From positions 192,001 through 256,000 of the forward strand of contig CAVYRH010000005.1 in the NCBI GenBank assembly GCA_963770835.1: DNA of 64,000 nt. The letters are read 5' to 3'. Below, one piece after another: positions 41,198 to 54,377 of the stretch; position 1 is the first letter of the stretch, and each line of letters starts with the position of its first letter. A model generated the notes under the pieces. The model saw only the letters and a program-made list of their open reading frames with translations. It had not been told where the DNA came from and did no database searches. The position numbers and the translations under genes were made by a program. The stretch is from an uncultured Pseudomonadota bacterium. GTDB lineage: Bacteria; Oederibacteriota; Muellerivitia; Muellerivitales; Muellerivitaceae.

Positions 41198-41274
<77 letters not shown>

Positions 41275-41289
41275 TATTTTTCAACGGTT

Positions 41290-42405
41290 CTACAACTTCG
41301 CTTCTTGGCTGGTGCCCGCCCGTGTCATATCCGTGTCAAACTGCCGCTCAACCTGCTTCAGCGCGTTCACCCGGTCTTTCCGGTCAATCCGGTTATACCG
41401 TTTGAACATCGCGTAGGTCTTATGGCCCGATATGGACATGATGACCGAATCGCTTACCCCCGCTTTTCTAAGATTCGTAACCGCGCAATGCCTGAGATCG
41501 TGGAACTTGAAATTTCCGATCCCTACCATGCGGCACGCCCTCAAAAAAGCTGTCTTGACGCTCCGGATGCGCTTTCCCCTATGGGTGAAGATATAAGGGC
41601 TTCCCAGGGTCTTAGGCGTCCGTTTCAAGAGGTCTAACAAGCCCTCCGTCAACGGGACTTCCCGTTTCTCCTGGGTCTTGGTGTCCGCGGCTTCCAGGTT
41701 GACCACCTTGTTTTGGAAGTCCACCTGATCCCAACGCAACCCCAAAATTTCCCCTTTCCTCATGCCGGTCCAATAAGCCAATTGGACTATGACACTTAGG
41801 CGGGGGGCGCAATGGGGCAAAAGCGCCTCGTATTCCTCCGGCGTCAAGGTGCGGTCGCGGGATTCTTCCCGGAAAGGCCTTACCCTCTGGATCGGGTTTT
41901 TCTCAACCAAGTCGTTGAGGACCGCCCGATTCACGATTGACTTGAGAGTCCCAAGGTCCCGGTTGAGGGTGCAGTTAGTCAGCACCTTCCCGCTACGGCC
42001 TTGATTCGTGGATTGGTTTCCAGCCTTCCTCCGTTGGGTTAAAAAGCCCTCAACTATGTCCGGCGTTAAGCTCCTCAAAGGCCTGCTACCAAAATAAGCC
42101 TTGAGCCGCTCGACTATCTGAGAATCGTTCTTGTGGCTTTTCCTTCTTGCTTCGGAATAGGCCAGGAACGAATCCGCCGCCTCGTTGAAGGTGACCTCCG
42201 GTTTTTCCACAGCCAGAAACTTTCCTGCCACAATTTCTTGCGTGTGTTGGGCTAGTATCTTCTTGGCCTGGGTTACCGGTATTTCTCCCAATCGGACCCG
42301 CTTGCGTTTCCTCAATCCTCCTTCCTGGATGAAATAATCCAAAAAATACCCTTTTTCATCCTTGCGGAGAAATTGGGGCAATCCATGAACATTAGGTCTA
42401 CTCAT
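41290..42405 (-). CDS. Tyrosine recombinase/integrase
   Basis: TGMRKGE, HDLRH, SGH, KRY catalytic motifs; short N-terminal arm-binding-like domain. Confidence 0.97.
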   Translation of the reverse strand: MSRPNVHGLPQFLRKDEKGYFLDYFIQEGGLRKRKRVRLGEIPVTQAKKILAQHTQEIVAGKFLAVEKPEVTFNEAADSFLAYSEARRKSHKNDSQIVERLKAYFGSRPLRSLTPDIVEGFLTQRRKAGNQSTNQGRSGKVLTNCTLNRDLGTLKSIVNRAVLNDLVEKNPIQRVRPFREESRDRTLTPEEYEALLPHCAPRLSVIVQLAYWTGMRKGEILGLRWDQVDFQNKVVNLEAADTKTQEKREVPLTEGLLDLLKRTPKTLGSPYIFTHRGKRIRSVKTAFLRACRMVGIGNFKFHDLRHCAVTNLRKAGVSDSVIMSISGHKTYAMFKRYNRIDRKDRVNALKQVERQFDTDMTRAGTSQEAKL

Positions 42406-42589
42406 TTGTCCCTCCTAATGTCCCCAGCAATTTGAATACTACCAGGGACTAAGATTTTTTCAAAAGAACTTTCAACGAGAGTTACGAAAAACTCGAAAAG
42501 TTCAATACCGTACTCGAAGCATTGAAAGCGTGGTTTTTTGCTGTTTGTTTTGATTTTTGTTTGGATGAAAGAAGTAGTCGTAAATATTT

Positions 42590-42714
42590 CCGCAATATGG
42601 GCGGCATACCGAACCAAGAGGGCAGACCCCACTACCGATTTCCTGGATAAGAACTTGATCCAGGGGGAGTGGGGTCTGCCGTCGCAGGTGAGCAATCCGC
42701 CGCCCATATTGCGG
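42590..42714 (+). ncRNA. Conserved long stem-loop A (structured RNA or ssDNA hairpin), element 1
   Basis: 16-bp and 13-bp perfect stems; compensatory changes relative to the copy at 50671-50795. Confidence 0.65.
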
Positions 42715-43060
42715 TTTTTTCTTGGAAAAGGATGTGAGTCTGAGTCAAGTTCCGCTTTAACCTGTTTTAAGTTCCGTTTAAAGTCGGTTGAGGTTCTCTT
42801 TGGAGAAGTTTGAAAAATGGATTGGCTGTGGTCGAAGCCTTGGGTGATTTTGCCTTCGGCCTTTTTCCTATTTGAACGTTCTAGCAGGGAAGGGTCACAA
42901 ATTGGCAAGGCGAGATCTTCGGCCCGTCTATCGGCCTTTAAATGCAAAAGCTCAAATTCAAGGTTCTCGATCATGACTAACATCCCGTAATGAGATCGAC
43001 TTCTTGAATTATCTTGAGAGCCCGTGATTATCTTTTCAATGTATTTTATTTTCGACTGTC

Positions 43061-43110
43061 ACTAACCGCCACTAGCCGTTCTTTACCATGCTTTACCATG
43101 GATTACCGTC
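43061..43110. repeat. Five 10-bp-phased degenerate repeats
   Basis: actaaccgcc/actagccgtt/ctttaccatg/ctttaccatg/gattaccgtc; related arrays at 45531-45580, 51149-51198, 54155-54204. Confidence 0.8.
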
Positions 43111-43198
43111 ACAAGATTTTTTTAGTGTCGAAAGGGGAATCGAGGCGATCAATCGGCGGTTTGGGTGGTTTAAAAACACTCGTGAAATCATTTAAGCA

Positions 43199-43345
43199 AG
43201 AATTGATAAGGGTTTGGATGATGTTCCATGGAAGTGAAACTTCCGCGCCATGGAAGTGAAATGTCCTACAGTAGGACATGGAAAGCCAATGTTTTTGATT
43301 ATTTTGGGTGGGTTTTTCCATTCTCCGATGGCGAACCCCCCTATC
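43199..43345. repeat. 147-bp block identical to 51287-51433
   Basis: Base-by-base comparison by eye; contains two CCATGGAAGTGAAA copies and the palindrome ATGTCCTAC-A-GTAGGACAT. Confidence 0.9.
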
Positions 43346-43404
43346 TGCGCATCAAGGTTAGATGCGAGAAACGATAGGGGGGTTCGCCCTCTCCGAATGG
43401 AAAA
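43314..43404. other. Conserved long stem-loop B, element 1
   Basis: TTTTCCATTC/GAATGGAAAA, GGCGAACCCCCCTATC/GATAGGGGGGTTCGCC, CGCATC/GATGCG. Confidence 0.75.
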
Positions 43405-43707
43405 CTCTGATTGCAATCTGTCAAAGGTAACTGATGATGAAACTGATTAAAAATTAAGATGAAGACCAAAAGACAAGCTGTGGTAGGGGTCAGAAGTGCA
43501 GGGGTGGAATGTAAGTGGTAATGAAAATTGGCGGGGTGGTGATAAAAAAAGCGGGTTATAAGTTTAGGGGTGCGAGTCTTTTGGTGGTTGGGTTAACTGG
43601 GTATTGCTTGTTTAAAATGCTGTAGTAAAATCCACCTTAGAAGCCCGGTTTTGGTTTAAGGTCTTGTTTCCGGGTTGAATCGGCTATAATAATTTTTGAG
43701 GTATTAA

Positions 43708-43943
<236 letters not shown>

Positions 43944-43944
<1 letters not shown>

Positions 43945-44297
43945 TGAAGTTCAAAATCGATGAAAACCTTCCCTCTGAAATCAAACGCCTTTTAATTCAA
44001 GCTGGTCATGATGCCCTTACAGTTAAAGACCAAGATTTAACCGGCCAATCCGATGCAAATTTAGCCGTTGTTTGTTTGGGAGAAAGCCGGGTATTCATAA
44101 CTGCCGATCTGGATTTTTCTGATATTCGGGCTTACCCACCGGAGAAGTATCCTGGAATAATGGTTATCCGGTCTGACCGCCAGGACAAACCAACGATGGT
44201 TGAATTGTTTCGTCCCGTGTTGGATTTATTGACAAAAGAACAGATAAACCAGAGGTTGTGGATCATTGAGCAAGATCGGGTAAGAGTACGGGAATAA
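43944..44297 (+). CDS. DUF5615 PIN-like toxin
   Basis: MKFKIDENLP...GHD...RVFITADLDF; overlaps the DUF433 stop codon. Confidence 0.9.
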
Positions 44298-44314: not shown

Positions 44315-45454
44315 TTGGAGGGTGCATTGTCTTCAATGAGAAGCCACTTGATGTTAAAAAAGTCCTTTTATAATGCCATTCTTTTTTTAATAACTCTTTT
44401 ATGTTGTTCTTTTGGATCATTTTCTCAAGCCCTTCCGACTGATGTTGTTATGGGTAATCCAATCAAAGGTGTTGAACTTGGAAAAATTGATGAAGCTTCA
44501 GGAACTTTTATTTTTCGTTCAAAGAAATACGATGGTTTTGTAGATATTGTTAGAAAAAATATGCCTGATGGTGCTGAATTTGGCGAACCCACAAAACGGG
44601 GCGCAAAAGAAAATCACTTAGGTTGGATACCGATTTATTTGGCGGATTTGGCGGGAAACGGGAAAAAGGAAATTTTTCTAATGGCCCCGGACAAAGAATC
44701 TGGTCAAAGAATGTTAATGGTTTTTGATGAAGATGGAAAATTGCTTGATCAACTTCCTTTTGAGAGTATTTGGCCATCATACATGGATTTCGGGTTGATA
44801 AAAAAAGGCGGGCCTATTTGTTTCGGCCTCCATTGGTGCGCGTTGGCGGCTGGGTCTTGTGAAGCGGAATTTTATGTTTTTTGCAATGAAAAAATAAAAC
44901 CAGCCTTAAAGGGTGGAGATATAAGCGAAGATGGGAATTTTACCACGCCAGAATTTAATGATATTAATTACGATGCCATTAAAAGGGGCGATGCTGGAAA
45001 CCCTACTCCATTTGTCCGGAATTACAAATGGCTTAATCCTAATGTAGAAACTTGGAAACATTTGAAAAAAGGTAAGGAGTATTACCACGCGCAAGATTAC
45101 AGAAATGCTATCCAGGAATATATGGCGGCGACTTCGTGCGATGACAAAAACTATGAGGCGTGGGGTTTGATGGGTTATTCTTATTTACGACAAAAGGGTG
45201 CTGCTTATGCTTATGAAGCGTCGCAAGCCCTACAAACCTCAGTTCGAATTAAACCGGATTATTTAATGGGCCATTACAATTTAGCCATCGCTTATTGGGC
45301 ATGGAATCAACCGATATTGGCTGTCAGAGAGGTTGCGAAAGTCGTTCAATTAGATCCAAAGTATCAAGAAGTCATAAACAAAGATCCACAATTTATCCAA
45401 ATCTTGAAATCGGATGTTTACCAGACTTGGAAGAAAACTAATGTTTTACCTTGA
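44315..45454 (+). CDS. Secreted TPR-containing cargo protein (start may be 44327 or 44336)
   Basis: Signal-peptide-like N-terminus; DLAGNGKKEI loop; C-terminal TPRs. Confidence 0.8.
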   Translation: MEGALSSMRSHLMLKKSFYNAILFLITLLCCSFGSFSQALPTDVVMGNPIKGVELGKIDEASGTFIFRSKKYDGFVDIVRKNMPDGAEFGEPTKRGAKENHLGWIPIYLADLAGNGKKEIFLMAPDKESGQRMLMVFDEDGKLLDQLPFESIWPSYMDFGLIKKGGPICFGLHWCALAAGSCEAEFYVFCNEKIKPALKGGDISEDGNFTTPEFNDINYDAIKRGDAGNPTPFVRNYKWLNPNVETWKHLKKGKEYYHAQDYRNAIQEYMAATSCDDKNYEAWGLMGYSYLRQKGAAYAYEASQALQTSVRIKPDYLMGHYNLAIAYWAWNQPILAVREVAKVVQLDPKYQEVINKDPQFIQILKSDVYQTWKKTNVLP

Positions 45455-45697
45455 AGAGCCCAAAATGGGAAGCCACTGCATAAAATGCAATAGGTCGTTC
45501 AATTAAAATCGGTGTCATATACGTGTCAAACTCAGTCATGTTTTACCGTGCTTGACCATCCCTTGCCGCCGTTGACCGCCACTTCAAAAAAAAGCCCTTG
45601 CCCTCGCTGGTTATAAAACCGTTGAAGACAAAGGCCTTTAAAAATCTGCTGGGGACTGTGAAATTTTAAAACTACTCGAAACAACTTATCGAATTAA

Positions 45698-45742
45698 CTT
45701 CTAAGCAGTGGGTCACCGGTTCGACTCCGGTCAGGCGCACCA
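45698..45742 (+). repeat. attR of element 1: displaced 3' half of tRNA-Arg
   Basis: CTTCTAAGCAGTGGGTCACCGGTTCGACTCCGGTCAGGCGCACCA with no 5' half upstream. Confidence 0.92.
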
Positions 45743-49290: not shown

Positions 49291-49367
49291 GGGCGAATAG
49301 CTCAGCTGGTTAGAGCACCTGCTTTACACGCAGGGGGTCACAGGTTCAAATCCTGTTTCGCCCACCA
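49291..49367 (+). tRNA. tRNA-Val(UAC); attL of element 2
   Basis: GGGCGAATAGCTCAG...CCTGC-TTTACAC-GCAGG...TTCGCCCACCA. Confidence 0.96.
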
Positions 49368-49382
49368 TACTTTTCAACACTT

Positions 49383-50486
49383 CTACGACTTCACCTCTTG
49401 CCCGGAAACGGCCCGTGTCATATCCGTGTCAAACTGCCTCTCGACTTGTTTCAGCGCGTTCACCCGGTCTTGCCGATCAATCCGGTTGTACCGTTTGAAC
49501 ATCGCGTAAGTCTTGTGGCCCGATATGGACATGATGACCGAGTCGTTCACCCCCGCCTTCCTCAAGTTCGTCACCGCGCAATGCCGGAGATCGTGGAACC
49601 TGAAATTCTTGATCCCGGCTTTGCGGACGGCCTTCCAGAAGGCGGTTTTGATATTCTTGATGCGCTGACCCTTGTAGGTGAAAACATAGGGGCTTCCAAG
49701 GGTCCTAGGCGTCCTTTTGAGGAGGTCCAAGAGCCCCTCCGTCAGCGGCACCTCCCGTTTCTCCTGGGTCTTGGTGTCCGCGGCTTCCAGGTTGACGACC
49801 TTGTTTTGGAAGTCCACCTGTTCCCACCGCAGTCCCAAAATCTCCCCCCGCCGCATTCCCGTCCAATAAGCCAATTGGAGAATGGTATTCATGCGTGGGG
49901 AACAATATCCCAAAAGTGCTTGGTATTCCTCCTGCGTCAAGGTGCGATCCCGTGATTCTTCCCGGAAGGCCCGAACCTTCTGAATCAGATTTTTCTCCAA
50001 CAAACCGTTGAAGACCGCCCGGTTCATGATGCATTTGAGAACCCCAAGGTCCCGGTTCAAAGTGCAGTTAGACAGAGGCTTTCCCCCAAAGGCAATGTTG
50101 CCCGCCTTCCGCCGTTGGGTCAAATAACCCTCAACGATGTCCGGCGTCAAGCTTCTCAGAGGCCTATTACCAAAATAGCCCTTAAGCCTGTTCACCATGT
50201 GGATGTCGTTCTCATGGCTTTTCCTTCTTGCCTCGGAATAGGCCAGGAACAAATCTGCCGCCTCGGTGAAGGTAACTTCCATTTTTTCCTCGTCCAGAAA
50301 CTTACCCGCCACGATTTCCCGCGTGTGTTGGGATAAGACTTGCTTGGCCTGGGTCAAAGGAATCAACCCTAACCGCACCCTTTTGCGCTTTCTTATACCT
50401 CCTTCCCGGATGAAGTAATCCAGAAAATACCCTTTGTCGTCCTTGCGGAGAAATTGGGGCAATCCATGAACATTAGGTCTACTCAT
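49383..50486 (-). CDS. Tyrosine recombinase/integrase (close paralog of 41290-42405)
   Basis: TGMRRGE, HDLRH, SGH, KRY; same N-terminus MSRPNVHGLPQFLRKD. Confidence 0.97.
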   Translation of the reverse strand: MSRPNVHGLPQFLRKDDKGYFLDYFIREGGIRKRKRVRLGLIPLTQAKQVLSQHTREIVAGKFLDEEKMEVTFTEAADLFLAYSEARRKSHENDIHMVNRLKGYFGNRPLRSLTPDIVEGYLTQRRKAGNIAFGGKPLSNCTLNRDLGVLKCIMNRAVFNGLLEKNLIQKVRAFREESRDRTLTQEEYQALLGYCSPRMNTILQLAYWTGMRRGEILGLRWEQVDFQNKVVNLEAADTKTQEKREVPLTEGLLDLLKRTPRTLGSPYVFTYKGQRIKNIKTAFWKAVRKAGIKNFRFHDLRHCAVTNLRKAGVNDSVIMSISGHKTYAMFKRYNRIDRQDRVNALKQVERQFDTDMTRAVSGQEVKS

Positions 50487-50670: not shown

Positions 50671-50795
50671 CCGCAATATGGGCGGCATAGTGAACCAAGA
50701 GGCCAGCCCCCACTACCTCTTTCCTGCCATCACAAAGTGATGCAGGGGGAGTGGGGGCTGGCGTCGCAGGTGAGCAAAACACTGCCCATTTGTGG
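50671..50795 (+). ncRNA. Conserved long stem-loop A, element 2
   Basis: GCCAGCCCCCACT/AGTGGGGGCTGGC stem; outer stem with G-U pairs on the + strand. Confidence 0.65.
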
Positions 50796-51401
50796 AATAT
50801 TTCCTTAATTTTCATCACAACCTGCTTGTGGTTCCGTGTAAAGCAGCTTTACGTTCCGATTTACCCTGGATAAGGTTCCGCTTGAATTTTTCGGGAGCGA
50901 AAAAACAGATGCGGACTGAACCAAGGCATGGGGTATTCCCCAAGGCAACAAGTCTGAATTTGAGCGTTGGGATTTTGAAGAGGGACAAACTGGTTTGGAG
51001 GGATCTTCGGGCCGTCTATCGGCCTTTAAATGCAAAATCTCTGATTCAAGGTTTTCGATCATGTTAGTCATCCTGTAATTAAATCGACTTCTTGAATTAT
51101 CTTGAGAGCACGCGGTTATCTTTTCAACGAATTTTATTTTGCGTTGTCACTGACTGCCACTAGCCGTTCTTTACCATGCTTTACCATTGATTACCGTCAC
51201 AAGAATTTTTTAGTGTCGAAAAGGGCATCGAGGCGGTCAATTAGCGGTTTGGGTGGTTTAAAAACACTCGTGGAATCATTTAAGCGAGAATTGATAAGGG
51301 TTTGGATGATGTTCCATGGAAGTGAAACTTCCGCGCCATGGAAGTGAAATGTCCTACAGTAGGACATGGAAAGCCAATGTTTTTGATTATTTTGGGTGGG
51401 T

Positions 51402-51492
51402 TTTTCCATTCTCCGATGGCGAACCCCCCTATCACCGCATCAAGTACGGATGCGAGAAACGATAGGGGGGTTCGCCCTCTCCGAATGAAAAA
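51402..51492. other. Conserved long stem-loop B, element 2
   Basis: Same 16-bp and 6-bp stems as element 1 with a different terminal loop (AAGTACG). Confidence 0.75.
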
Positions 51493-51721: not shown

Positions 51722-52051
51722 ATGGATTTATTTAAGTTCGACAAAATTCTTATCTCGGAGTTTCTTGAAAAGGGCTATTTCGATTGGAGATTGCATGCCT
51801 TAGAAAGGGCGGCGGAACGAAGTATTTCGCAGGATAAAGTGCTGGAGATACTTCGCCAATGGGATGTGCTGGAAAAGGAATATAATCGAAAGCCTTTTCC
51901 AACGGCCTTGGTTATAGGCTGGAATGGACAACAGCCGATTCACGTTGTTGTTGCCATAGATGAAGCCCTGGAATGGGTGTATATTATTACCGTGTATGAA
52001 CCGGACTTGGACCATTTTGAGCCAGGTTTCCGGGCGAGGAAAAAGCCATGA
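51722..52051 (+). CDS. DUF4258-family putative toxin
   Basis: HALERAAERSIS...P..LVIG....PIHVVVA....IITVYEPD. Confidence 0.88.
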   Translation: MDLFKFDKILISEFLEKGYFDWRLHALERAAERSISQDKVLEILRQWDVLEKEYNRKPFPTALVIGWNGQQPIHVVVAIDEALEWVYIITVYEPDLDHFEPGFRARKKP

Positions 52052-52284
52052 CGACAAAAACAGCCGGAAAAATCTGCCCCCTTTGCGGGGGAACCAAAAA
52101 ACCTGGGAAGGCCACTTTCACTGTTGAGACGGGGGAAGGGGTTGTTGTGGTTCGAAATGTTCCAGCCGAAATTTGCGATTTGTGCGGGGAAGAATGGATT
52201 GCCGCCAATGCCGCGAAAGAACTTGAAGCCCATGTTGAAAGCGCCCGCCAAAAACACCTTCAAGTTGAAGTTGTGCCTTTTTGA
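52048..52284 (+). CDS. YgiT/MqsA-type zinc-finger putative antitoxin
   Basis: CPLCGG...VVVVRNVPAEICDLCGEEW; ATGA overlap with the DUF4258 gene. Confidence 0.9.
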   Translation: MTTKTAGKICPLCGGTKKPGKATFTVETGEGVVVVRNVPAEICDLCGEEWIAANAAKELEAHVESARQKHLQVEVVPF

Positions 52285-52323
52285 TTTAATTCCCGTTTAG
52301 TCCGCTTGTAATAGGAGTAAATA

Positions 52324-54120
52324 TTGGTTCGGAAATTTCTCCTAATTCCTTTATTTCTTTTTTGGGGGATTCCTTTTCAGGCCGAATCTCAGTCTGGCGA
52401 AGTTGTCAAACCGACTTTAGACCCATTGATATACATAAAATCAAAAGAAGGTGTTTTGCACCAGGATGTCAGGAACATTCGGGATATTGCCTTGGACTTC
52501 GCCGGCAATATTTTCCTCTTGGATTCCTTTCACCTGGGTGTTCAAAAGTTTACCAATGATGGCCATTTTTTAACGAATTGGGGTGCGACGACCGATAAAT
52601 CCAAACGTATAGGTGATAGCCTAGCCATCGACCCAAAAGGAAACCTCTATCTTTTAACGATGAAAGGTGTTGTTTTTAAATACACGAATAAAGGTGTTCC
52701 TCTTCAACAATATGCCCCAAAGGAAATAGAGCCGGGACAGTATGAGGGGACTACTTCCATCCGTTTTTCGAACGGACACTTTTTTATTTTGGACAGGTAT
52801 CATTGTAAGGTCCAGATTTTTGACCAGGATTTCCATTATCTATCCTCCTTTGAACTTCCATCCGAACTCCGTGATTCAGGCCGCATGAAATACTGCCTTT
52901 GCCGCAATATGGCCGTAGACAGCTTGGAGAATATCTACCTGGACAGCAAAGGGGAGATCGATAAGTACGATAAGAACGGGAAACTCCTAAAACGGGTTGG
53001 TTATCCAGGCAACGGGCATGGGGAATTCATGGGGATTAATGGGATAGCTGTTGGTTCGATGGATCGTATTTATGTTATCGACCGGGGCCGAATCCAGGTT
53101 TTTGACGATGATTTAAATTTTTTGATGCAATTCAAACCCCGTGAAATGGTCCAACACCTAGCCATTGATGGCCATGGCTACATTTACACTGCCGGTTTGG
53201 AAGAGAGTGTGGAGAAGTTCGCTAAGTATGACGGCCCCTTCATTCTGAAAAATGCAGAGGAATTTACAAAGTATTCCGATGACCACAATAGCCCGGATTA
53301 TCCACTCCTCGAAGTCGGTCCGGACGGAAAAATCCCGCCGACCTTTTGGAGATACTCTCCTAGGATAGAAAAAGTCACCAGCGAACTTAAAACAGTTAAT
53401 TCAAAAGATGATTTGATCGTATTTGGGAAAAAATATTCCAAATTCAGTGGCCAGGATAGCGACGAAGATACTTCTCCGGACAAGGGTGAATTCTTAAAAA
53501 AGCTCAAAGAGATGGGGTTCATCCCGGAAGCGGGAACCGAGTCCGGTTTCTTCCAGTTCAAAGAAATCCAAAGCCCCCATCTTTACTACTGGTGTTTCAA
53601 CGATTTGGTTTATGGGATTTTCCCCGAAGACCCACATCAAGCGGTGGAAATAACCCGGTTTCCCGGTAAATTTACCGGAGTTTGGCGTATCAACGAAGTT
53701 ATTTCTGCGGAAAAAATGGGGCCAGGCTGTTACCGATTTTCAAAGAGTGAATCAGGGAAATACGAGCCGAGCTCCACCCTAACGATTTCGGACGTGGATT
53801 TGAACCGGAAGAAAATGGATGCTTATTCATCCGAAGGTTATCTGAAAGACCTGGATCATAACGGCAAGAATGAGTGGATTTATTACTTGAGCACCGGGGA
53901 CAAGTTTGAAATTTTCCTTTGGCCCTATGTCTTTTCCTGGGACGGACAATCTTGGGCAAATGTCAGCGCCACTTACCCCATCTTTTATAAGACTGAGGCC
54001 TTTGAAAACCTGAAATCTGTTGAAAAATGTTGCGTCGGCCAATATTACACTGACCCGAAATTGGTTGCCTTGTTGGAACAGGCCGCCTTGGCGGGCGGCC
54101 CCAGCGCGTTTAGTAAATAA
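52324..54120 (+). CDS. Secreted NHL-repeat (beta-propeller) cargo protein
   Basis: Signal peptide; DIALD.AGNIF.LD...VQKF and GIAVG..RIYVID..RIQVF repeats; DLDHNGKNE loop. Confidence 0.85.
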   Translation: MVRKFLLIPLFLFWGIPFQAESQSGEVVKPTLDPLIYIKSKEGVLHQDVRNIRDIALDFAGNIFLLDSFHLGVQKFTNDGHFLTNWGATTDKSKRIGDSLAIDPKGNLYLLTMKGVVFKYTNKGVPLQQYAPKEIEPGQYEGTTSIRFSNGHFFILDRYHCKVQIFDQDFHYLSSFELPSELRDSGRMKYCLCRNMAVDSLENIYLDSKGEIDKYDKNGKLLKRVGYPGNGHGEFMGINGIAVGSMDRIYVIDRGRIQVFDDDLNFLMQFKPREMVQHLAIDGHGYIYTAGLEESVEKFAKYDGPFILKNAEEFTKYSDDHNSPDYPLLEVGPDGKIPPTFWRYSPRIEKVTSELKTVNSKDDLIVFGKKYSKFSGQDSDEDTSPDKGEFLKKLKEMGFIPEAGTESGFFQFKEIQSPHLYYWCFNDLVYGIFPEDPHQAVEITRFPGKFTGVWRINEVISAEKMGPGCYRFSKSESGKYEPSSTLTISDVDLNRKKMDAYSSEGYLKDLDHNGKNEWIYYLSTGDKFEIFLWPYVFSWDGQSWANVSATYPIFYKTEAFENLKSVEKCCVGQYYTDPKLVALLEQAALAGGPSAFSK

Positions 54121-54332
54121 ACTGGATGTGCAGCCGTGTCATATACGTGTCAAACTCAACCATGCTTTACCGTGCTTGACCATCCCTTACTGCCATTGAC
54201 CGTCACTTGAAAAAAAGGCCCTTGCCCCCGCAGGTCGTAAAACCGTTGAGAACAAAGGCCTTTAAAAATGTGCTGGGGACTGATAAATTTTAATAAACAA
54301 TCTAAAAGAGCTTCCGAATATGGTCCGTGTGA

Positions 54333-54377
54333 TTTACACGCAGGGGGTCACAGGTTCGAATCCTGTTTCGCCCACCA
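54333..54377 (+). repeat. attR of element 2: displaced 3' half of tRNA-Val
   Basis: TTTACACGCAGGGGGTCACAGGTTCGAATCCTGTTTCGCCCACCA. Confidence 0.95.

Follow-up and report, generated by a model that had tools for sequence, protein, structure and literature searches.

A conserved hairpin of two minimal tRNA islands in candidate phylum FCPU426, a likely MOB_C-type origin of transfer

Introduction

What is the role of a 125-nt hairpin that lies upstream of an integrase gene and occurs twice, with matched changes in its stem, in the DNA of an uncultured bacterium? The question arises in the window, by which we mean the whole stretch of 64,000 nucleotides that was analysed, and a preliminary description of this DNA offered two answers: an unrecognised cis-antisense RNA, or a single-stranded DNA hairpin of the Frpo/ssi kind, driving int after transfer. 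Our analysis favours another answer, namely that the structure, called here hairpin A, is likely a MOB_C-type oriT carried by oriT-only hitchhiker islands and nicked in trans.

Results

Hairpin A is a strongly folding structure present in both islands

In element 1, hairpin A occupies positions 42590..42714 of the + strand and is composed of an outer 16-bp stem (42590-42605/42699-42714), an internal loop, a 13-bp core stem (42621-42633/42668-42680), an asymmetric loop and an apical stem. The copy of element 2 lies at 50671..50795 (+), and its core stem (50702-50714/50750-50762) differs at pairs 2 and 6 on both arms, pairing being kept in both cases. Compared with 200 dinucleotide shuffles, the + strand of element 1 folds with a z-score of -9.8 both as RNA and as DNA, and that of element 2 with z-scores of -8.4 (RNA) and -7.0 (DNA); none of the 200 shuffles made for each element folded as well. 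The positions, stems and two compensated changes given by the preliminary description were all recovered, as were the two G-T pairs that it had seen on the + strand in the outer stem of element 2, which also shows a 1-nt bulge and the loss of its innermost pair. That description had missed a second hairpin, hairpin B, which belongs to the same fold family and is inverted relative to A, on the minus strand at 43314..43404 in element 1 and 51402..51492 in element 2.

A 193-aa open reading frame runs across hairpin A (42402-42983, minus strand). It is a shadow frame, since change is equal at the three codon positions (0.32/0.34/0.31), and frameshifting indels and the lack of a Pfam match also rule it out.

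Hairpins A and B sit in 4.5-5 kb islands devoid of mobilisation genes

Each of the two islands measures 4.5-5 kb and shows the same layout, a tRNA gene followed by a minus-strand tyrosine integrase gene, about 1.3 kb of conserved non-coding DNA where hairpin A and the inverted hairpin B have been kept, a probable toxin-antitoxin (TA) pair, a cargo gene and attR. Element 1 begins with tRNA-Arg(TCT) at its attL (41198..41274, +), and its integrase gene (41290..42405, minus, PF00589) has no xis upstream. A sigma-70-like site with an extended -10 (42436..42463, minus) is found upstream of int and outside the hairpin, about 130 nt from it, and was kept in 9 of the 11 loci of the window's subtype that were displayed. 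The cargo comprises a DUF433 plus DUF5615/PIN-like pair (43711..44297, +), probably a TA module, and a gene for a TPR protein (44315..45454, +); the island ends at attR (45695..45742, +), a displaced tRNA 3' half. Between attL (41227-41274) and attR of this element, about 13 of 48 positions differ; judged from these sequences, element 1 has swapped in its own version of the tRNA-Arg(TCT) 3' half. Element 2 starts at tRNA-Val(TAC) (attL, 49291..49367, +), a site that is empty in a genome of the same genus (L037), and continues with an integrase gene (49383..50486, minus) whose product is 80% identical to the first one. Its cargo (51722..54120, +) encodes a DUF4258 protein with a small partner, probably another TA pair, and a beta-propeller protein, and its attR (54330..54377, +) is identical to the 3' part of tRNA-Val at 46 of 48 positions.

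Several short repeats accompany these genes. An imperfect array of 10-bp direct repeats, likely protein-binding sites, is found at 43062..43111 (+) and again near attR (45532-45581) in element 1, and at 51150-51199 (mid-island) and 54156-54205 (next to attR) in element 2. The same array precedes the clade-B relaxase gene of a related island (L032), which suggests that one protein, perhaps Xis, may couple excision and mobilisation. A tandem GTGTCA direct repeat is present inside the island ends (41322-41341 and 45512-45531, also at 49415 and 54136); similar repeats stand beside many related integrases and are probably arm-type sites of the integrase. Beside hairpin B, the block 43224-43285 is highly conserved and holds two CCATGG palindromes and a short GAA-loop hairpin; it is present in relaxase-less and ICE copies and degenerate where a B relaxase adjoins. 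Within it, an 11-nt motif (43243..43253, +) is conserved 55-70 nt from hairpin B in the relaxase-less and ICE copies.

In tblastn and profile searches of the genome, no relaxase, T4CP, MPF or xis gene was found in the window islands, and the interval between the two hairpins gave no trace of a relaxase gene. The segment 42747..42786 (minus) weakly matches (E 0.004) the spacer that separates the relaxase stop from the hairpin in intact modules and may be a relic of it, with no relic of relaxase coding sequence. In genome G027, a clade-B relaxase gene still separates hairpin A from hairpin B in the orthologous tRNA-Val island, and the tRNA-Arg island (L032), whose integrase is 90% identical to that of element 1, holds xis, a B relaxase and hairpin B. 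Since the islands of G027 still hold a relaxase or xis, the form seen in the window likely arose by stepwise loss. The relaxase-less layout with both hairpins was seen again at three loci (L034, L035, L042). No usable excision joint was found in four sequencing-run contig sets.

Two other repeated features were observed. In G000, a repeat of about 60 nt or longer containing GCAGGTGAGG, probably an IS end, is present in more than 15 near-identical copies (C2, C3, C4, C5, C11, C15, C20, C24 and C26). A related tRNA-Asp island (L002:964-4915, G000:C10) encodes an AEP-TOTE primase-helicase, AbiEi/AbiEii and Fic proteins, and carries two B hairpins with an IS between them.

The hairpins form a covarying family of three types

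Within a single family of candidate phylum FCPU426, sequence searches yielded at least 87 distinct copies: 50 of type A, 35 of type B and the pair from element 2. BLAST with the hairpin-bearing block found matches in 22 of 30 genomes of the same family, a weak one in the single genome of the same order and none in 29 others. A covariance model trained on 51 A-type copies matched 21 of the 30 same-family genomes and, under stricter filters, none of 68 genomes from other families of the phylum. This model also recovered the B type, with E-values of about 1e-11 to 2e-11. The Rfam search that had been proposed for the hairpin, run at gathering and E-value thresholds, gave just tRNAs and chance matches (best E 1.2), and no family matched hairpin A.

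The core stem is Watson-Crick paired in 662 of 663 cells of the A alignment and in 500 of 504 of the B alignment, with no G-T pair. Covariation amounts to 0.256, against 0.092 in shuffled alignments, and none of 500 shuffles scored as high; both-side changes occur in 13 of 29 pairs, with 95% pairing against 42-50% in slid controls, all these figures being inflated by the relatedness of the sequences. The structure used was obtained by RNAalifold from the same alignment, so the counts lean towards it. Gene conversion between arms can also yield compensatory changes without selection, and such arm-to-arm conversion is visible in L115 and L151. In three hairpin B copies (L115, L151 and L026), the ends have become symmetric because sequence of the other arm replaced one flank; these copies are natural tests of which flank matters.

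Across the 51 A copies, full or almost full invariance is limited to AG(A) on the left side and GTCG on the right. All 51 have the GTCG (42681..42684, +), which directly follows the core stem on its 3' side. As for the large internal loop of the preliminary description, its conservation holds within the window's own subtype; elsewhere the same region is mostly a covarying helix, and the loop is best read as the opened form of that helix. This opened-loop subtype lacks an adjacent clade-A relaxase in 9 of 9 copies, whereas such a relaxase is present for 40 of the 41 other A copies. A likeness of its GGTGAG loop to PriA n'-pas and rolling-circle dso motifs was considered and dropped, because the loop is subtype-specific.

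The A orientation is the better DNA folder in 49 of 51 A copies, and isolated mismatches are G-T in 15 cases against A-C in 3. The idea that this is a strand-biased structure, likely acting as single-stranded DNA in a transfer context, was therefore right. Type B shows no strand preference as RNA (14 of 36).

Intact relatives encode a predicted MOB_C-type relaxase next to the hairpin

In intact modules, the gene order is cargo, a small RHH-like gene, a VirD4-like T4CP gene (TrwB_AAD_bind/TraG-D_C), a gene of 270-305 codons directly behind it, the hairpin, xis (HTH_17), int and the tRNA. The 270-305 aa protein carries an invariant PD...ExE (D...ExE) motif, and its structural model (pLDDT 82) consists of a winged helix and a PD-(D/E)XK nuclease domain, for which the best structural matches are to FokI (E 3e-4, with low TM-scores). 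A winged helix combined with a PD-(D/E)XK fold has been described for TraX (PMC12857230, PMC6736028), and PF13814 (Replic_Relax) corresponds to MOB_C (PMC5357655). Among the Atlas neighbours of the partner protein, 16-24% of members carry PF13814, and this domain was found in 21 of 47 distant profile matches scanned (of 73 returned), 9 of them above the cut-off. A broadened profile links the partner proteins to the pAM373 relaxase (E 8.5e-10, through one sequence). In contrast, direct comparison of alignment A3 with the pAM373 relaxase was not significant, a direct Pfam scan assigned PF13814 to 0 of 20 aligned partner proteins, tblastn in the PLSDB plasmids returned no related relaxase, and no solved structure was matched by sequence. 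The model and the profiles suggest a restriction-enzyme-like relaxase of putative MOB_C/Replic_Relax type, i.e. a predicted conjugation nickase. The possibility of a filamentous-phage satellite or of a packaging signal was rejected: the relaxase family was not found in viral contigs, and its partners are conjugative.

Candidate helpers are encoded in the island's own genome, where relaxase-like genes are present on C1, C19, C5/C9 and C12. The C1 relaxase belongs to clade A (71% identical), and its T4CP gene is frameshifted in the present assembly; that of C19 belongs to clade B (70% identical). VirB4/VirB6-like genes are carried by C2 and C12, VirB4 being found with PF19044 and not with PF03135. 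VirB6- and VirB4-like genes also characterise FCPU426 ICEs (G004:C4:131762-245848, i.e. L215-L221; G024:C14, i.e. L212-L213; G000 C2 and C12); in these, they are followed by a conserved TPR-GGDEF gene and one that is SpoVG-like, right before xis-int. In G004, two such ICEs stand in tandem at tRNA-Thr. The ICE of C12 has an RNase H gene between its T4CP and relaxase genes (L187:5733-6554, G000:C12).

The type of hairpin follows the relaxase clade

A search with the relaxase alignment gave 94 loci, 93 of them with a relaxase by profile, duplicates and kin included. In the relaxase tree (IQ-TREE quick search), 49 clade-A loci have downstream sequence; all 49 carry hairpin A on the strand opposite to the relaxase gene, 68-92 nt beyond its stop codon. 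Hairpin B is found 86-171 nt past the stop in 16 of 16 clade-B1 loci; three more clade-A loci and one more clade-B1 locus end at a contig edge. No locus pairs a relaxase with the other hairpin type in that position. Members of a third group, clade C, have a hairpin nearby in 3 of 21 loci and none within 4 kb in the other 18. Six of six long clade-C elements examined, including C9 of the own genome, hold hairpin B 15-46 kb downstream, on the opposite strand. In the ICEs, hairpin B is usually found between umuC and c17-ardC, with one copy per complete ICE; the two complete tandem ICEs of G004 have exactly one each. In the integrase tree (FastTree), elements with A, B or A+B are intermixed, so the hairpin type does not follow the integrase. 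Linkage alone could account for the matching of type and clade.

The A-trained model was then submitted to a blind test, in which 20 matches were fetched, 8 of them weak and of neither A nor B type. Five of these eight (4 distinct) turned out to lie 74-126 nt past a distant relaxase gene that follows a T4CP gene; the remaining three are at a contig end, beside integrase remnants, or apparently false. The core 3' arms of the five, which we call C type, read GTGGG|GTCGGG, GAGGG|GTCGGG or GCGGG|GTCGGG, and the commonest C-type 5' arm differs from the A-type arm at 1 of 13 positions.

Discussion

An origin of transfer compared with other roles of the hairpin

The most serious competitor of the oriT reading is a single-strand origin (sso/ssi), where the hairpin would fold on the transferred strand so that host RNA polymerase or primase starts the complement, the oriT being elsewhere, at H2 or in an AT-rich region. 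It has to be taken seriously because sso1 of ICEBs1 sits right behind the relaxase gene and is orientation-specific (PMC4595007), which is exactly the place of hairpin A; the downstream position in 49 of 49 clade-A loci thus speaks against an oriT as well, MOB_C origins being usually upstream. The strand-biased fold of hairpin A also suits an sso, as does the ICE hairpin B, located where single-strand signals are common (PMC11541004). H2, a second conserved hairpin, is present in 42 of 44 intact modules; it precedes xis, about 75-170 nt beyond hairpin A on the xis side (L073-L145, e.g. L001:6200-6260), and has no copy in the window. Its stem holds a DnaA-box-like TTTTCCACA in most of the 42 copies, and it folds better on the relaxase-antisense strand, the same as hairpin A, in 38 of 42. 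The A-site of the ABC primosome is a DnaA box in a hairpin stem (PMC6127211). With its DnaA-box-like 9-mer and its fold on the same strand, H2 would be the better fit for an ABC-primosome-type single-strand origin, for which it is our candidate. The islands without a clade-A relaxase kept hairpin A and not H2 (0 of 12 regions examined). Moreover, hairpin A has no -35/-10, its type follows the relaxase clade, and the divergent third type behind distant relaxases has the post-nick hexamer of CloDF13; in the window the two copies are on opposite strands, yet one strand is transferred at a time. Together these observations make an sso role for hairpin A improbable, although a serious contender. 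The roles could also be reversed, H2 rather than A being the oriT. In the region before the RHH gene, no conserved hairpin was found; it is AT-rich with short repeats, and conservation is 0.4-0.6 besides the ribosome site.

The other explanations fare less well than an oriT. A promoter of Frpo type, active on single-stranded DNA straight after transfer, would drive xis-int, or ardC in the ICEs, and the better-folding strand is indeed the template of the genes beyond (xis-int, c17-ardC, TA cargo). Frpo is defined by -35 and -10 elements in its stem (PMC11541004). With both hexamers required within the stem at a spacing of about 17 nt, none of the 85 copies (50 A and 35 B) reaches 9 of 12 sigma-70 matches on either strand, the stems being made up of G/C runs; int is preceded by an extended -10 site of its own, and the next conserved gene in the ICEs is about 1.4-2 kb off. 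The proposal of the preliminary description that such a promoter drives int is therefore very doubtful. Its other proposal, an RNA antisense to the int leader, to which a 3' structure of the mob mRNA may be added, draws on the strong RNA fold, the strong covariation and internal loops that are purine-rich on one strand. We regard a structured RNA as quite unlikely because wobble pairs are absent (G-U in none of 663 + 504 core-stem cells) and the position of the hairpin is fixed to the relaxase and not to int; the lack of any Rfam match, the absence of an RNA strand preference in type B and the absence of a promoter-like site on the + strand in 42300-43750 point the same way. Still less credible is the view that the hairpin terminates the mob operon, or that it is a palindrome in decay whose symmetry is maintained by gene conversion, despite the location downstream of the operon, a weak terminator-like call at 42699-42715 and the symmetrised copies. 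The mob-sense strand has no U-tract, the number of terminator calls is within shuffle expectation, the hairpin is kept in operon-less islands and found 15-46 kb from the operon in ICEs, and it has invariant unpaired positions.

Candidate nick sites and a possible course of transfer

For a hairpin A that acts as oriT, comparison with CloDF13, ICEKp1 and pMET1/HPI gives two candidate nick sites in element 1. CloDF13 is nicked at GGGTG/GTCGGG (PMC5935869), ICEKp1 at GGTTG|GTCGCG (PMC7755788), and the pMET1/HPI origins have two nic sites because these lie within an inverted repeat (PMC2262945). The first candidate, placed by alignment to the C-type hairpins and the CloDF13 nic, would be in the 3' arm of the core stem (42668..42680, +), between 42673 and 42674, with a minus-strand mirror at 42628/42627. 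The second, by likeness to the GTCGCG of ICEKp1, may be at 42680/42681, just 5' of the invariant GTCG. The in-stem site equivalent to nic reads GTC in 21 of 51 A copies and GGC in 30 (GTCTG/GGCTG), and mostly TTC or CTC in B copies, so the CloDF13 hexamer has not been kept in the types of the window.

The following course of events can be proposed. Excision by the integrase would rely on the excisionase of a paralogue, and the clade-A relaxase of C1 would bind the extruded hairpin A and nick it, the cut probably falling within the 3' arm of the core stem or immediately 3' to it. A single strand would then pass via a coupling protein to the VirB4/VirB6 pore of a resident ICE, and the transferred strand would re-close at the refolded hairpin and integrate into the 3' end of a tRNA gene. 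The inverted hairpin B would offer a second entry for clade-B or ICE relaxases. A more elaborate version is possible, but we hold it only tentatively: a two-key hitchhiker lineage, relaxase-less and xis-less and with its own hairpin-A subtype, in which inverted IME- and ICE-type origins let either strand be exported by either helper, and in which a rod-shaped single-stranded fold of three types, downstream of the relaxase, is recognised, cut and re-closed without a covalent bond. Published accounts of MOB_C relaxases, as far as they are available, report that no covalent DNA intermediate was detected (PMC6736028, PMC12857230).

The hairpin family offers about 90 natural variants, whose three types each go with a relaxase clade, and two nick positions are predicted; it is a ready set of substrates for asking how MOB_C relaxases start and end transfer. 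The oriT reading gives minimal defence/TA islands of an uncultured soil phylum a way to move, and a search for oriT that stays upstream of the relaxase would overlook such hairpins. In the freely readable literature surveyed (bioRxiv texts without their supplements, hence without the oriT catalogues of Ares-Arroyo et al.), we found no paper on FCPU426 mobile elements, nor one that places a MOB_C origin downstream of its relaxase. The sequence families, the downstream placement and the combination, in so small an element, of two inverted putative origins that belong to different relaxase clades are likely new.

Comparison with known systems

The hairpins share with the origins of CloDF13, ICEKp1/pMET1, pAD1 and pAM373 a long imperfect inverted repeat with outer, core and apical stems and an internal loop, and likewise have a partner that is predicted to combine wHTH and PD-(D/E)XK domains, carries a DEE-type motif and is encoded behind a VirD4-like T4CP. 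In the CloDF13 sequence record, a long imperfect hairpin holds nic in the 3' arm of its central stem, and C-type copies share the CloDF13 post-nick GTCGGG; the A type has an invariant GTCG, reminiscent of the ICEKp1 post-nick GTCGCG, just outside the core stem. In pAM373, a long inverted repeat, which we take to be its oriT, sits between the T4CP and relaxase genes; its loop is asymmetric, its apical stem is small, and five direct repeats adjoin it. Adjacent direct repeats as in pAM373 form the binding site of TraX (PMC12857230). Unlike TraX, no array of five repeats was found 70-120 bp from hairpin A, and we claim no such binding array because a strict direct-repeat motif is present beside hairpin A in 14 of 50 copies. 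Sequence identity to the MOB_C origins does not exceed 4-6 nt, and the FCPU426 relaxases remain below the PF13814 cut-off. Whereas characterised Gram-negative MOB_C origins are usually upstream of the T4CP gene (PMC2262945, bioRxiv 2024.01.30.577996), hairpin A is downstream of the relaxase gene and faces it.

With sso1 of ICEBs1 (PMC4595007) and Frpo/ssi of F (PMC11541004), the common ground is that of single-stranded stem-loops of conjugative elements, and sso1 has the same place downstream of the relaxase. Unlike sso1 and Frpo as described in these papers, the FCPU426 hairpin has no -35/-10, its type tracks the relaxase clade, and it is one long rod instead of three stem-loops. The intact relatives have the compact T4CP-relaxase-recombination order of the streptococcal IME_Class_8 (VirD4 + PF13814/MobC; Coluzzi et al. 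2017, PMC5357655), but differ from the class outlined there by a tyrosine and not a serine integrase, tRNA targets, an RHH gene and a host of Gram-negative type.

Finally, the window islands resemble the iOriT, the oriT-only integrative hitchers of Ares-Arroyo et al. (bioRxiv 10.64898/2026.01.13.699239), with which they share an integrase, att sites and an oriT-like site, the absence of relaxase and MPF, defence/TA cargo and helpers in the same genome. At 4.5-5 kb they are among the smallest, integrative elements being almost all larger than 4 kb in the available text of that paper. They also lack xis and come from an uncultured phylum, outside the six species treated there. Whereas the same text ties oriT families to one or other kind of element, each window island has two inverted candidate origins, one of IME type and one of ICE type.
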